Virus record (IMG/VR): IMGVR_UViG_3300027672_001796
Reading direction: 5' to 3' (one strand)
From: a virus
Lineage: Duplodnaviria; Caudoviricetes
Length of the DNA: 64,000 bases
The notes under the pieces were generated by a model. The model worked only from the letters and a program-made list of their open reading frames with translations. It did not search any database and had not been told where the DNA came from. This document shows positions 2,847-63,602 of the stretch, piece by piece. Position numbers and translations under genes: made by a program. Numbering within the stretch: position 1 is the stretch's first letter; each line of letters starts with the position of its first letter.

Positions 2847-3278
2847 ATGATCCAAGTCCAAGTTATAGGACAAATCAGAAACAAGCAATTAATAGAACGA
2901 GTTAGTGAACTATTACTCGAGAATATTATACCTACAAAATTAAGACGCCCAATAGAAATTACAATCAATATATTAACCGTTTGCGATGAACAAGCCGGCG
3001 GTTATTGTTGGGGCGATAGGTCAACAGTTGAAATAGAAATAGCTAGAACGTCAAACGAACATACATACTCACGTGAAAAAATGCTAACTAATTTAACACA
3101 CGAATTAATCCATGCAAAACAGTTTATAATGGGAGAGATAACCCCTAATATGAACATGTGGAAACAACAAGAAGTAAATCGTGCTAAAGTTCCTTACAGC
3201 CATCAACCCTGGGAGAGAGAAGCATATCGTTGGGAAAAGCGGTTGTATGATAATTACTTTAAGAAATTAAATGTATAA
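2847..3278 (+). CDS. HExxH zinc-metallopeptidase-like (SprT/zincin-type) protein
   Basis: LTHELIHAKQ and QPWEREAY motifs; ATG at 2847 follows an AGGA SD. Confidence 0.7.
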   Translation: MIQVQVIGQIRNKQLIERVSELLLENIIPTKLRRPIEITINILTVCDEQAGGYCWGDRSTVEIEIARTSNEHTYSREKMLTNLTHELIHAKQFIMGEITPNMNMWKQQEVNRAKVPYSHQPWEREAYRWEKRLYDNYFKKLNV

Positions 3279-3283
3279 AGTTC

Positions 3284-3312
3284 TTGACATAGGGTACGAT
3301 TTTTAGTATAAT
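3284..3312 (+). promoter_or_regulatory. sigma70-type promoter
   Basis: TTGACA-N17-TATAAT perfect consensus. Confidence 0.85.
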
Positions 3313-3342
3313 TATTAGTACAAAACAAAACTGGTGCAAAAT

Positions 3343-3534
3343 ATGAGTAATGACAAAGTAATAATATCTGAACCCACACATGAATTTACATATAGTAGGG
3401 AAAAAAGTTATTTACAGAACTACCAGAATTGGCGTGTACTTAACCAACAAGAACGTCTTACTTGGAATGAAGAGCAAATGACGGCAGAAGAAGCCGAGCA
3501 ATCATTTGCACAACAATACGGAAACTTTAAATAA
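3343..3534 (+). CDS. hypothetical protein
   Basis: ORF directly downstream of the promoter and abutting the next gene; ATG at 3343. Confidence 0.65.
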   Translation: MSNDKVIISEPTHEFTYSREKSYLQNYQNWRVLNQQERLTWNEEQMTAEEAEQSFAQQYGNFK

Positions 3535-4083
3535 ATGACAACTCATGCAATGATTGATATTGAAACATTAGCTACTAAGCCTAATGCTGTTGTATTAACT
3601 GTTGGCGGAGTTAAGTTTAATCCGTATAGTGCAGAAGACCCGCATACTCCATTTAGTGTAAGACTGAATATTGATGAACAAACTGCCAAAGGCAGAGTTA
3701 TCGATCCTAATACTATTGAATGGTGGGGAAAGCAAGATAAAGCAATTCAAGATGAAGCGTTCTCAGATGAGAACAGAGTTTCAGTAATCGACTTTATTGC
3801 AGACCTTAATAAATGGCTAAATGGCACTGAACTTAAATGGGCACAAGGATCTAGATTTGATTATGGTATCCTTGAAGACCTAATTGAGAATAGTTTCGAA
3901 CAACACAAAAATTGGTTCTTTTGGCAAGAAGCTGATAGCAGAACACTAGGACAACTGGTCCCAAGGGATCTGCGTAAAGACGATTCGGGTAATCAAAAGG
4001 ACTTGCACTCAGCACTCGCTGATGCATACAATCAAGCAAAAGCAGTACAAAAAGCATATAAGCATCTCAATATCATCCAATAA
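3535..4083 (+). CDS. DEDDh 3'-5' exonuclease (DexA/Rv2179c-like)
   Basis: MIDIET, WAQGSRFDYGIL and HSALADAYNQ motifs. Confidence 0.85.
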   Translation: MTTHAMIDIETLATKPNAVVLTVGGVKFNPYSAEDPHTPFSVRLNIDEQTAKGRVIDPNTIEWWGKQDKAIQDEAFSDENRVSVIDFIADLNKWLNGTELKWAQGSRFDYGILEDLIENSFEQHKNWFFWQEADSRTLGQLVPRDLRKDDSGNQKDLHSALADAYNQAKAVQKAYKHLNIIQ

Positions 4084-4084
4084 T

Positions 4085-4136
4085 TTACCACTATTTGTGG
4101 TAAAAGGTTGACATCACCCCTAAAAGGTAGTATAAT
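4085..4136 (+). promoter_or_regulatory. early promoter cassette P1 with upstream palindrome
   Basis: TTACCA-N7-TGGTAA (4085-4103), then TTGACA (4108)-N17-TATAAT (4131). Confidence 0.85.
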
Positions 4137-4170
4137 ATATACTTATTAGACAATAAAGGAAAGGAAGAAA

Positions 4171-4222
4171 AAGCCAATAAAAACGGTAAAAGGTTGACAT
4201 TGGTCCTAGAATTTAGTATAAT
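4171..4222 (+). promoter_or_regulatory. early promoter cassette P2 with degenerate palindrome
   Basis: AAGCCA-N7-CGGTAA (4171-4189), then TTGACA (4194)-N17-TATAAT (4217). Confidence 0.85.
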
Positions 4223-4281
4223 ATACATAAGTTAATAAGAAGGGCTTGTTAACAATAATCATAATGTCGGGGATGACTAAT

Positions 4282-5331
4282 ATGACAACAATGAAGAAAA
4301 ACAAACTAAACTATGTAAAGATTAAGGCTGGTACTTACCGTAAAAACGAAATCGTTGATACAGTATTTCCAATTATTAAGCCACTTAACATAGGTAAGAA
4401 AGGTGCGTTCATTACAGTAAACGGTAGTGAAGTAATGGGAGACCAGTTCGCTAGTATAAGAGTACTTATAGAAGATCCAACACAGGATCTAGAATATGTA
4501 ACTCCTAGTGTTTATGCAGAGCAACCAAAAATTGATCTGAAGCCTAAGAAAGAAGAAAATGACGAAGAAGCAATTGAGCGTATCAGAGAACGTTTTGATA
4601 TTCTTGATAGAATGACTCATGCTGTAGCAGAAGGTACAGTACGTGGTATGATTGTTAGTGGTCCTCCAGGTGTTGGTAAATCTTATGGTGTAGAAACTGT
4701 GCTAGAAGATTACGATATGCTTACTGAGGTTGCTGGCAAGCCTGCAAGAACTGAAGTAGTAAAAGGTTCGGTTACTCCAATTGGTTTATTCCAAACACTA
4801 TATAACAATTCAGAAGCAGGTAACATACTTGTATTTGATGACTGTGATAGTGTGTTGTTTGATGAAGTATGTTTGAATATGCTTAAAGCAACTTTGGACT
4901 CAGGTAAGAAAAGAACTATTACTTGGAAGTCAGAATCACAAGCACTTCGTAGAGAAGGTATTCCAGATAGATTTGAATTCAAAGGTGGTTGTATCTTTAT
5001 TACTAACGTAGACTTTGAAAACGTTCGTTCTAAAAAGATTAAGGATCACTTAGCGGCACTTATGTCAAGATGTCACTACTTGGATCTTACAATGAACTCT
5101 ATAAGAGATAAGTTCCTCAGGATTAACCAGATTGTTAAAGATGGTATGCTTGAAGAATACAAGTTTGGTGTAGAAGGTGATAAAGAAATTATTAACTTTA
5201 TGACCACTAACCAAGAAGCTCTTAGAGAGATAAGTTTGAGAATGGTTTTGAAGATATCGGATCTTAGAAAAATGGATCCTGCTAATTGGGAAAAACTTGC
5301 AAGAACTACTTGTATGAAAGGAACAATTTAA
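4282..5331 (+). CDS. AAA+/P-loop ATPase
   Basis: Walker A GPPGVGKS and Walker B ILVFDDCD. Start placed at ATG 4282 after the GGGGA SD (4269-4273); ATG 4291 is an alternative. Confidence 0.85.
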   Translation: MTTMKKNKLNYVKIKAGTYRKNEIVDTVFPIIKPLNIGKKGAFITVNGSEVMGDQFASIRVLIEDPTQDLEYVTPSVYAEQPKIDLKPKKEENDEEAIERIRERFDILDRMTHAVAEGTVRGMIVSGPPGVGKSYGVETVLEDYDMLTEVAGKPARTEVVKGSVTPIGLFQTLYNNSEAGNILVFDDCDSVLFDEVCLNMLKATLDSGKKRTITWKSESQALRREGIPDRFEFKGGCIFITNVDFENVRSKKIKDHLAALMSRCHYLDLTMNSIRDKFLRINQIVKDGMLEEYKFGVEGDKEIINFMTTNQEALREISLRMVLKISDLRKMDPANWEKLARTTCMKGTI

Positions 5332-5341
5332 TAAGAAACGA

Positions 5342-5393
5342 ACTAACAGTTCCCCCGGTGCTCGATTGTTAGTCATCCCCTAAATGGAGCACC
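5342..5393 (+). ncRNA. candidate structured RNA element (interleaved stems, C-rich loop)
   Basis: ACTAACA (5342-48)/TGTTAGT (5367-73) and GGTGCTC (5357-63)/GAGCACC (5387-93). The loop is complementary to the SD region of the upstream ATPase gene. Confidence 0.45.
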
Positions 5394-5395
5394 AC

Positions 5396-5428
5396 GAAGC
5401 CCGGATCCCCTCCGGGCTTCACCTTTTG
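5396..5428 (+). terminator. intrinsic terminator
   Basis: 10-bp stem GAAGCCCGGA/TCCGGGCTTC with a TCCCC loop, followed by ACCTTTTG. Confidence 0.75.
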
Positions 5429-5451
5429 TGTAATTGAGTAATAGAAATTAC

Positions 5452-5479
5452 TTGACTTTGACACAGTAAAGTGTATAAT
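5452..5479 (+). promoter_or_regulatory. sigma70-type promoter for the TonB receptor gene
   Basis: TTGACT-N16-TATAAT; AGGAG SD at ~5519 precedes the ATG at 5529. Confidence 0.7.
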
Positions 5480-5528
5480 TACTTATTGTTGAAAGACAAA
5501 GATAATAACATTTAAAAAGAGGAGAAGT

Positions 5529-7196
5529 ATGAACAAGATGTTTACTTTTGCCGCCATAATGCTATTCGCATTCCAGGCCCAGGCAGAAAATATAGAAGAA
5601 GTAGTAGTATATGCCCAAGAGGTTAAAACTACAAAAGCAAGTCCGTTAACAAGTACAACTTTATTCGAGGCAATAATGCCTGATAAGACTTGGATGGCAG
5701 GTGGTTACGGAGCAAGTACAATGTTCAGAGAACGTGGTGCTCAATCTGTACATACCGTAGTATATAAAAATGGTGTTCCAGCAAACAACCCAGGCAGTGG
5801 TTGGTATGATTTTGGACACGACATTACTAGTGGCGAAACAGTAAAAGTTATTAGTGGTGCAAACGGAGTTATGTACGGCTCAGGCAGTATAGCTGGAACA
5901 GTACTAATTCAAGACACTATTGATACTAGTGTAACTGCAAGGCTTGGTTCAAACCACCAGCAGTATATTAGTGTTGCCCCTACAAGTTGGTTCCAGTATT
6001 CAGACTTTAGTGTAGAGCAACAAACAAGGAATGATAATACTGAAACAGACAAGTACGAAAACAAGAGTGCTAAAATTATAGCAGACGCCGGCGACTTTAA
6101 GTTTATAGTTAATGCAGTAGATTATGCTTACGATTATGACAACTGTTATACACCAGAGTTCACTCAATCAAACGATTGTTTACAAGACGGTCAAAAAGTT
6201 ACAGTTAGTGTAAGGAACGAATACTTTACTCTAGGTAGAACAGAAGAGAAAGCAGAATATTTTACTGAAGGTGTAAGTACATATCAAAACGAAAGCAGTA
6301 GAGATTATTTCAGAATAGGCGACACTACAAATTTGTCGACACTACTTGAAGTAACATATGGTGTAGATGGTAGCAAAGAACAATACAATGAACATAGCGA
6401 TGATAACTATGGCGTGTTTCTAAGTGTTGATGCACAATTTATTCTAGACTACAACTTTGGAATTAGGTATGGCAACGATGACCAGAATGCATTGCGTTTT
6501 GGAATAGCTAAAGACCAGTTCTATCTTAACGTAGGTACTAGTTTTAGAAAGCCTAACTTGTACGAGCTTTACGGCGACAGTTACGTTGATGCTAATGATG
6601 AGCTAATGCCAGAAGAAGGCACAGGCTATGAGATTGGTTTTGGTGCTTTAAGTTTATTTAGATATGACTTTGAAGAATCAATTGAGTATACTCCTGGCTT
6701 TAATACTATAATGCCTATTGCAAATGCAATTGACGAAAGCGATGATATTATAGAGATGGTAGAACCAGCTAGTAGTACTGATGTGTGGACCAATGCAAGG
6801 TATTACAATGCAGGCAGTTACTCTACACAGGGTGTTAGATTCTCTAATAACTTTGGACCAGTAAGTGTTATGATAAAGTACAACGATTCTGATAAAGCAA
6901 GAGTGGCACAGTACATTACAGTTCTAACATACAAAAAGATGTGGAAAGAAATTGCATACAAAGTAAGGTATGTAGGATCATTTGACAGAACACCTGGTCT
7001 GTATGATACACTTCCAACTGGACAAGAATACTTAGACGACCTTAAGAAGCTAAACTTTTATGCAGTAAAAAAACTTCCTAATAACACTACTATTTCTTTT
7101 ACAGCATTAAACTTAACAAACGAACAAGCAGAGGTTCTTCCTTATTATAATAATAAAGGCAGAGAATTTAACTTGACAATTCAGTACAACTGGTAG
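5529..7196 (+). CDS. TonB-dependent outer-membrane receptor, BtuB-like
   Basis: Signal peptide ending AQA, TonB-box-like IEEVVVYA, plug motifs KNGVP and GVMYGSGSIAGTVLI, barrel motif GTSFRKPNLYELYG, and C-terminal aromatic YNW. Confidence 0.85.
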   Translation: MNKMFTFAAIMLFAFQAQAENIEEVVVYAQEVKTTKASPLTSTTLFEAIMPDKTWMAGGYGASTMFRERGAQSVHTVVYKNGVPANNPGSGWYDFGHDITSGETVKVISGANGVMYGSGSIAGTVLIQDTIDTSVTARLGSNHQQYISVAPTSWFQYSDFSVEQQTRNDNTETDKYENKSAKIIADAGDFKFIVNAVDYAYDYDNCYTPEFTQSNDCLQDGQKVTVSVRNEYFTLGRTEEKAEYFTEGVSTYQNESSRDYFRIGDTTNLSTLLEVTYGVDGSKEQYNEHSDDNYGVFLSVDAQFILDYNFGIRYGNDDQNALRFGIAKDQFYLNVGTSFRKPNLYELYGDSYVDANDELMPEEGTGYEIGFGALSLFRYDFEESIEYTPGFNTIMPIANAIDESDDIIEMVEPASSTDVWTNARYYNAGSYSTQGVRFSNNFGPVSVMIKYNDSDKARVAQYITVLTYKKMWKEIAYKVRYVGSFDRTPGLYDTLPTGQEYLDDLKKLNFYAVKKLPNNTTISFTALNLTNEQAEVLPYYNNKGREFNLTIQYNW

Positions 7197-63566: not shown

Positions 63567-63602
63567 ATACATATATTAAGCAATAAGGGAAAGGGGAAAA
63601 AC

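Follow-up and report, generated by a model that had tools for sequence, protein, structure and literature searches.

Can the 3' end of a phage mRNA close the translation start at its own 5' end? The question is raised by a 64,000-nucleotide stretch of viral DNA (Duplodnaviria; Caudoviricetes; IMG/VR record IMGVR_UViG_3300027672_001796), here called the window, in which the 3' untranslated region (UTR) of a gene for an NrdC.10-like AAA ATPase carries a stretch complementary to the Shine-Dalgarno (SD) sequence, spacer and start codon of that same gene. We refer to it as the anti-start stretch and, together with the structures around it, as the 3' element. A preliminary description of the window had pointed to this complementarity and had suggested either long-range self-repression of translation or a 3'-derived small RNA (sRNA) that silences several early genes. 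Comparison with homologous loci from uncultured marine phages showed that the complementarity is conserved and that its two partners co-vary.

The 3' UTR of the ATPase gene is complementary to its start region

Positions 4269-4280 (GGGGATGACTAA), which comprise the SD GGGGA and the spacer, are the exact reverse complement of 5369-5380, as can be read directly in the sequence. The G-U and A-U pairs said to extend the match were also found (T4281 with G5368, A4282 with T5367), and the resulting 14-bp helix (4269-4282/5367-5380; -22.2 kcal/mol) reaches the A of the ATG at 4282. A search of both strands of the window returned a single perfect copy of the 4269-4280 12-mer. By simple arithmetic with uniform bases, a 12-mer match between stretches of 28 and 100 nt is expected by chance with a probability of ~1e-4.

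We then slid the loop 5364-5386 along all 25,588 30-nt segments on both strands of the window in a duplex scan. The best real match was the gene's own start region, at -24.4 kcal/mol versus -19.7 kcal/mol for the runner-up. Complementarity of more than 8 nt between start region and 3' flank was seen in none of the 99 ATG-started open reading frames (ORFs) of at least 70 amino acids in the window; the ATPase gene does not stand out in this list because it was scored there from an upstream in-frame ATG.

Both partners are conserved and co-vary in homologous loci

Covariation of the two 12-mers in homologous loci had been set beforehand as the test of the pairing. Two scans of IMG/VR yielded 160 loci whose proteins are 65-98% identical to that of the window, and 103 distinct combinations of start region and 3' UTR were scored. 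The own-pair comparison used a contiguous-helix score, because a duplex scan with the whole 62-nt 3' UTR was noisy, long bulged duplexes with coding sequence scoring well. The test came out in favour of the pairing: each of the 103 combinations contained an own-pair contiguous helix (7-14 bp, median 9, mean -14.8 kcal/mol), and 5'/3' swaps between clade types gave a mean of -7.6 kcal/mol. Ranked against ~95 background start regions, the own start region came first in most clades once one antisense artefact had been set aside. This ORF (5376-5065) appeared to be a better target; its 'start region' is the complement of the element itself, and it is not conserved.

In clades A-C (loci L001-L054), conservation of the 3' UTR equals that of the coding DNA. 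The 13-nt core of the anti-start stretch (5368-5380, GTTAGTCATCCCC) was invariant in 53/53 of these first 54 loci that reach the 3' UTR. The start regions of these clades vary, and each is still complementary to the invariant core. In the window's own clade, the G-run GGGG and ATGACTAA are contiguous in the paired start region, and in L010-type loci the helix is down to 9 bp. Loci of clades B and B2 have the core paired to the start codon plus the two codons behind it (ATGACTAAC) and its C-run to the G-run of the SD, and the spacer is looped out. The third, synonymous positions of the two paired codons are fixed where they are paired; where they are unpaired, codon 2 is ACA or another. Locus L035 of clade B2 has gained an additional pairing of AAAGGGGA with TCCCCTTT.

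In clade D, both partners have changed, to TGTGGGAG (often with one extra G) and CTCCCACA, and the pair at the helix edge is G-C, G-U or A-U depending on the locus. L211 combines GCTGTAGGAG with CTCCTACAGC, a compensatory change within the core. L143-type loci have the helix lengthened on one side to 13-14 bp, and L198 has it lengthened on the opposite side (GTGGGAGAAC with GTTCTCCCAC). Natural covariation, that is, the clade-level switch of both partners and the changes in L211, L143, L198 and L035, thus provides the compensatory evidence for the pairing.

The first three codons of the ATPase gene stand in tandem duplicate at 4273-4290 of the window (ATGACTAAT, then ATGACAACA). The upstream copy now forms the SD spacer and helix partner, and clade B has one copy, which is the real start. 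Because the codons are in tandem in the window and in single copy in clade B, comparison of the two suggests that the contiguous 12-mer arose through a 9-nt duplication.

An exact 12-bp inverted repeat on both sides of an ORF could also be a matter of DNA, either as sites of inversion or cassette exchange flanking the gene or as a minus-strand copy that drives an antisense gene; T4-type phages do shuffle genes at terminator-promoter cassettes (PeSL; PMC2839356, PMC4122927). However, the helices contain G-U pairs, which would be mismatches in DNA and therefore make the pairing signal specific to sense RNA. Gene order and orientation are constant in all loci displayed, a bulge interrupts the match of clades B and B2 on just one of the arms, and the length of the minus-strand ORF beginning in the element ranges from 4 to 147 codons. 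We regard a DNA-level role as largely refuted and give it almost no credence.

Full-length folds predict the long-range helix

In a 1200-nt model of the window mRNA, the minimum free energy (MFE) structure pairs 4269-4279 with 5370-5380 at pair probabilities of ~0.9, and barring 4269-4282 from pairing costs 5.1 kcal/mol. The corresponding helix was present in the MFE structure of 6/8 relatives taken from different clades, with probabilities of 0.58-0.95. These folds ignore ribosomes and kinetics, and we take them as supporting evidence only. The earlier proposal that the 3' element pairs with the ribosome-binding site of its own gene is thus backed by conservation, by covariation and by full-length folds.

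The anti-start stretch lies in a small pseudoknot

The isolated 3' region folds much better than its shuffles (z = -6.2). The local structures described earlier are present in the sequence: a 7-bp hairpin (5357-5363/5387-5393; S2) with the anti-SD stretch in its 23-nt loop, an alternative 7-bp pairing of 5342-5348 with 5367-5373 in pseudoknot order (S1), and a C-run at 5351-5356. The TCCCC of the terminator loop is found in the window (terminator 5396-5420, loop ATCCCCT), but did not hold up as a conserved third motif, many relatives carrying other loops. At 5421-5427, a CAC(C) spacer between the terminator stem and the T-run is kept in nearly all clade A-C loci, which is unusual for intrinsic terminators.

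S1 and S2 interleave as an H-type pseudoknot, and among 30 distinct sequences both stems show covariation. The compensatory pair of S1 is A-U in 7 of these (the window clade) and G-C in 23, and S2 has further stem changes in clade D2. Slid controls for the two stems had 25-49% of cells paired (Table 1 gives the values for S1 and S2).

The 5' strand of S1 contains ACTAAC, the letters of codons 2-3 of the ATPase gene in clade B, so that S1 and the start region compete for the same 6-7 anti-start bases (5367-5373). Sequence comparison supports both of these competing pairings. With S1 formed, the part of the anti-start stretch that stays free is a C-rich seed of ~7 nt. S1 displaces a segment of the long-range helix worth -3.8 kcal/mol and, at -5.7 kcal/mol, is itself the slightly stronger duplex. 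The arrangement has the anatomy of a switch or a tuned brake.

The layout differs between clades. In clades A-C, the anti-start stretch lies ~35-50 nt past the stop codon. Clade D2 retains the C-run followed by a hairpin with the anti-SD in its loop, and lacks S1. In most clade D loci, an unstructured anti-SD starting 1-10 nt past the stop is all that is present. We also considered whether a terminating ribosome would open S1 in clades A-C and gave this little weight: the start of S1 is 11-18 nt from the stop codon's first base, which is the very edge of the footprint.

The order seen here, a small H-type pseudoknot with a terminator right behind it, is a classic riboswitch layout. Together with the invariant loop nucleotides and with the receptor genes that in some clade D loci follow the terminator without a promoter of their own, it might suggest a ligand- or protein-sensing attenuator for the TonB-dependent-receptor-like gene downstream, or a 3' stabiliser, the start-region match being incidental. 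We consider this very unlikely. An Rfam search of positions 3000-7000 at E up to 10 returned no relevant family, clades A-C have a consensus promoter between the terminator and the receptor gene, most clade D loci carry the anti-SD but no pseudoknot, and an attenuator does not predict covariation with the start region. Furthermore, in L060, L066 and L073 the receptor gene is absent, uvsW directly follows the ATPase gene, and the 3' element is retained. This indicates that the element belongs to the upstream ATPase gene and not to the gene downstream.

The element is tied to a single gene

Searched with a covariance model of the element, the window gave no copy beyond the known one. A DNA pattern restricted to element variants with a 3-nt linker matched 51 IMG/VR stretches once apiece, in contigs of up to 340 kb and including one of 217 kb; most of the 51 are ATPase contigs from the first IMG/VR scan. 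In the four stretches that were new, the element lies just 3' of a copy of the ATPase gene. A second copy of the 9-nt target was absent from the 340-kb relative (CheckV completeness 91%), apart from the complement of the element itself. Candidate trans targets were rejected: the 340-kb relative has a site with two mismatches that does not coincide with the start of a gene, and 18145 is inside an ORF.

These results bear on the sRNA proposed in the preliminary description. A set of early genes with GGGGA SDs as its targets finds no support, as no second target was found in the window or in the 340-kb relative, and the further target named at 63593 offers a 5-nt SD only. The complementarity extends beyond the SD into the ATPase gene's own spacer and first codons.

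The same pairing could nevertheless take place between molecules, if an RNase cut in the AU-rich linker behind the stop codon freed a stable RNA of ~90 nt made of the pseudoknot and the terminator. Such a 3'-UTR-derived sRNA would target the ATPase message and perhaps also host messages whose SDs are rich in G. The strong structure of the 3' region (z = -6.2), the conserved single-stranded linker ahead of it and the terminator at its end would all suit such an RNA; the two consensus promoters would make it abundant; and the 13-nt core is more invariant in clades A-C than its own target is. Against this, the window holds no other matching start region and the 340-kb relative no other site that matches the core, the complementarity follows the gene's own spacer and codons, and the unstructured anti-SD of most clade D loci would make a poor stand-alone sRNA. 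A promoter-like site was looked for within the 3' end of the ATPase gene and none was found, so that the RNA would have no internal promoter. On balance we think a trans-acting RNA unlikely, although worth keeping in view.

The ATPase gene and its surroundings

The ORF at 4282-5331 strongly matches phrog_1250 and weakly matches Pfam AAA families; a PDB sequence search with the ATPase gave no match. Its closest cultured relatives are in PA5oct-like jumbo phages (49% identity), and T4-type phages follow at ~35%. A DNA search of cultured phages found nothing matching the window DNA. In PA5oct, Acj9 nrdC.10 and phiA8-29, the homologue is placed in tight operons, and no anti-SD was found 3' of the gene. 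The element is therefore specific, we believe, to the uncultured marine lineage. The positions of the features are listed in Table 1.

Table 1. Features of the ATPase transcription unit and their positions in the window.
Feature	Position	Strand	Basis or remarks
Upstream early promoter P1	4108..4136	+	12/12 match to sigma-70 consensus
Proximal early promoter P2	4194..4222	+	12/12 match to sigma-70 consensus; relatives have -10 boxes at matching positions
5' leader hairpin, 9 bp, loop AAGGG	4231..4253	+	sequence; in full-length MFE structure
Translation start region target (SD GGGGA, spacer, A of start codon; 5' strand of long-range helix)	4269..4282	+	sequence, duplex scan, full-length fold
NrdC.10-like AAA ATPase gene, 349 aa, phrog_1250	4282..5331	+	profile matches
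Pseudoknot stem S1, 5' strand	5342..5348	+	98.6% of cells paired, one compensatory pair
First C-run, conserved TTCCC core	5351..5356	+	single-stranded linker, possible second anti-SD; in some predicted dimers
Hairpin S2 (5357-5363 with 5387-5393), anti-start stretch in loop	5357..5393	+	100% paired, two compensatory pairs
Anti-start stretch (3' strand of long-range helix)	5367..5380	+	13-nt core 5368-5380; sequence, locus comparison
Intrinsic terminator: 10-bp stem, loop ATCCCCT, 3-nt spacer, T-run	5396..5427	+	stem covariation in L012, L020, L034

Two sigma-70 promoters stand in tandem ahead of the ATPase gene, and four such consensus promoters lie within 2.2 kb (3284-3312, 4108-4136, 4194-4222 and 5452-5479; three match 12/12, one 11/12). 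Because two perfect promoters precede the gene and a terminator and a further promoter come after it, the gene is predicted to be a monocistronic early unit. Transcription from P2 would start near 4229 and give a leader of ~52 nt. The 5' leader hairpin at 4231-4253 directly follows this predicted start; L005 and L010 have compensatory changes in its stem and keep the G-rich loop, and it is probably a 5' stabiliser. At the other end of the unit, the terminator (5396-5420) has a promoter behind it (5452-5479) at this one border, and the pseudoknot part is single-copy in the window; in T4-type phages, PeSL cassettes, in which an early promoter follows a stem-loop terminator, are repeated at many cassette borders (PMC2839356).

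The neighbours of the ATPase gene are a gp32-like and a UvsX-like gene, an exonuclease gene, the TonB-receptor-like gene and UvsW. In the gene immediately upstream (3535-4083), Pfam PF16473 (E 2.5e-32) identifies an Rv2179c-like 3'-5' exonuclease domain; this enzyme, which trims RNA or DNA, adjoins a putatively RNA-regulated gene. The TonB-dependent-receptor-like gene downstream (5529-7196) has a Plug domain and a signal peptide. It is present in most relatives at 35-51% identity only, and behaves like a variable insert among conserved genes. In clade D loci such as L055, L061, L067, L074 and L077-L080, the receptor gene follows the ATPase terminator and has an SD but no recognisable promoter. 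As far as can be judged from these signals, receptor expression there would depend on read-through of the ATPase terminator.

Discussion

The reading that we favour, with a probability of roughly 0.6, is that the anti-start element in the 3' UTR pairs with the SD, spacer and start codon of its own gene and thereby limits translation of the finished mRNA, in the manner of icaR. We infer the helix in vivo, its action within one molecule and its repressive effect; the sequence itself fits action in cis and in trans alike. The ATPase gene would be transcribed as a monocistronic early mRNA of ~1.2 kb. The anti-start element would be made ~1.1 kb after the start region, and ribosomes would load on the nascent transcript in the meantime. 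Once the 3' end is complete and the start region is free, the helix would shut the start region, block the 30S subunit and cap the amount of protein made per transcript. In clades A-C, half of the anti-start stretch would alternately be held in S1 by the copy of codons 2-3. S1 and the long-range pairing are mutually exclusive, which gives the element the form of a tunable switch.

Several features make this reading the natural one. The anti-start stretch is transcribed last, and the simplest reading is therefore that translation is early and is curtailed on the complete message. In each clade, the SD, the start codon or both are buried in the helix, so that the 30S subunit should be excluded while the helix is formed, given what is known of initiation and the icaR precedent (PMC3868564). 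By analogy with icaR, the helix may also form a substrate for a double-strand RNase; cleavage by RNase III is uncertain, since the helix is under two turns long. Long-range pairing of anti-SD-like sequences is normally selected against (PMC12697547), which makes the strict retention of the element meaningful.

Other observations weigh against it. Two perfect promoters before a gene that silences itself look wasteful, and the RNA itself could be the product. In a Gram-negative host, where transcription and translation are coupled, the start region could stay occupied. L025 and L211 fold at full length without the helix, and the clade C loci L049 and L054 have an own helix of just 7 bp, which ranks 8-11 of ~94. 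The 3' core is invariant in clades A-C whereas the start region varies, and the core may thus face a further constraint from the pseudoknot, a protein or another RNA. The weak clade C helix, the invariant core with its varying target and the very strong promoters leave room for a processed sRNA or a further partner.

The helix might also be no brake at all. It could close the mRNA into a loop that guards against 5'-end-dependent or SD-directed nucleases, or that returns terminating ribosomes to the start. A site 1-10 nt past the stop, where most clade D anti-SDs begin, falls inside the footprint of the terminating ribosome, and each termination in clade D would therefore unzip the helix beside the start site. 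A precedent for protection is hbs mRNA of Bacillus subtilis, in which a helix of likewise ~14 nt joins both UTRs of one mRNA, stabilising it and protecting it against RNase Y (PMC5737220). As reported, however, the hbs pairing leaves the start site unmasked and does not cover the SD in the same way. Here the SD, the start codon or both are within the helix in every clade, and the helix, when formed, must exclude the 30S subunit. In clades A-C, moreover, the anti-start stretch is beyond the reach of the terminating ribosome. We find such a protective or recycling loop rather improbable. About as improbable, in our view, is a closed-loop mRNA whose translation would sustain itself under ribosome flow and which would lock shut when the flow stops, that is, a bistable, translation-sensing switch of which the decoy of clades A-C would be a second version.

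Self-repression by the 3' UTR, which we prefer, has relatives among known systems. In T7 gene 1.2 and in RNA phages, a distant segment of the same RNA pairs with the ribosome-binding site. The T7 gene 1.2 case reportedly concerns a mutant together with processing by RNase III. For MS2 and Qbeta, the masking partner is part of an upstream coding region, and translation opens it.

The closest analogue is icaR, followed by hbs and by the anti-SD-like sequences of Gill et al. In Staphylococcus aureus, the UCCCC motif of the icaR 3' UTR pairs with the gene's own SD, blocks initiation and yields an RNase III substrate (PMC3868564). The ATPase gene likewise has a C-rich motif in a structured 3' UTR that is complementary to its own SD region, over 14 bp in the window and 7-14 bp in 103/103 relatives; both messages are monocistronic, and a block of initiation is expected here too. 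The two elements have no sequence relationship, and the present one belongs to a phage gene with a presumed Gram-negative marine host. Its helix is longer (9-14 bp) and takes in the spacer or start codon, and its anti-start stretch lies in a hairpin loop and a pseudoknot with a built-in mimic of the start region. The pairing predicted here is backed by covariation over ~100 distinct variants.

In B. subtilis, anti-SD-like sequences hundreds of nt downstream that pair with ribosome-binding sites have a repressive effect in vivo, and genes are otherwise depleted of such sequences (Gill et al., PMC12697547). They resemble the present element in being pyrimidine-rich, far downstream and paired with the ribosome-binding site. 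Whereas such sequences are generally selected against, strong purifying selection has kept the element described here, which evolves in step with its partner.

T4-type phages also control translation by hiding the SD or AUG in RNA structure, in local hairpins in genes e, soc, 49, I-TevI and mobE (reviewed in PMC3014915). There the partner is immediately upstream and the block is relieved by a late promoter, whereas the partner here is 1.1 kb downstream in the 3' UTR; that review of T4 post-transcriptional control describes no long-range case and no 3' UTR partner. The C-rich anti-SD sRNAs (RsaE/RoxS and the RNAIII hairpins; PMC2790875) similarly use unpaired C-runs in loops to pair with G-rich SDs. 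They are independent transcripts with many targets, unlike the present element, which has no promoter of its own, no Rfam match and one evident target.

A 2021 review lists pairing between the UTRs of one mRNA only for RNAIII, icaR and hbs, leaves phages unmentioned, and states that the functional 3' UTRs of acnB, hmsT, aceA and hbs are not conserved among close relatives (PMC7821165). The principle is thus shared with icaR; what is new is an unrelated element, its setting and its architecture, in which a bipartite anti-SD and anti-start-codon stretch is combined with a pseudoknot decoy. Judged by the loci compared, the comparative support for the pairing appears unusually strong.

The promoters are of the ordinary sigma-70 kind and the SD is of the 16S type, and the system should therefore be transferable to Escherichia coli reporters at once. 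If the repression is true, the element would be a compact natural part for capping the protein made per transcript, and a conserved pseudoknot would have been given a role; the element also offers a test bed for long-range folding against coupled translation. With ~100 natural variants that carry compensatory changes, it provides comparative evidence that selection can keep a 5'-3' pairing in a prokaryotic-type mRNA across large evolutionary distances.

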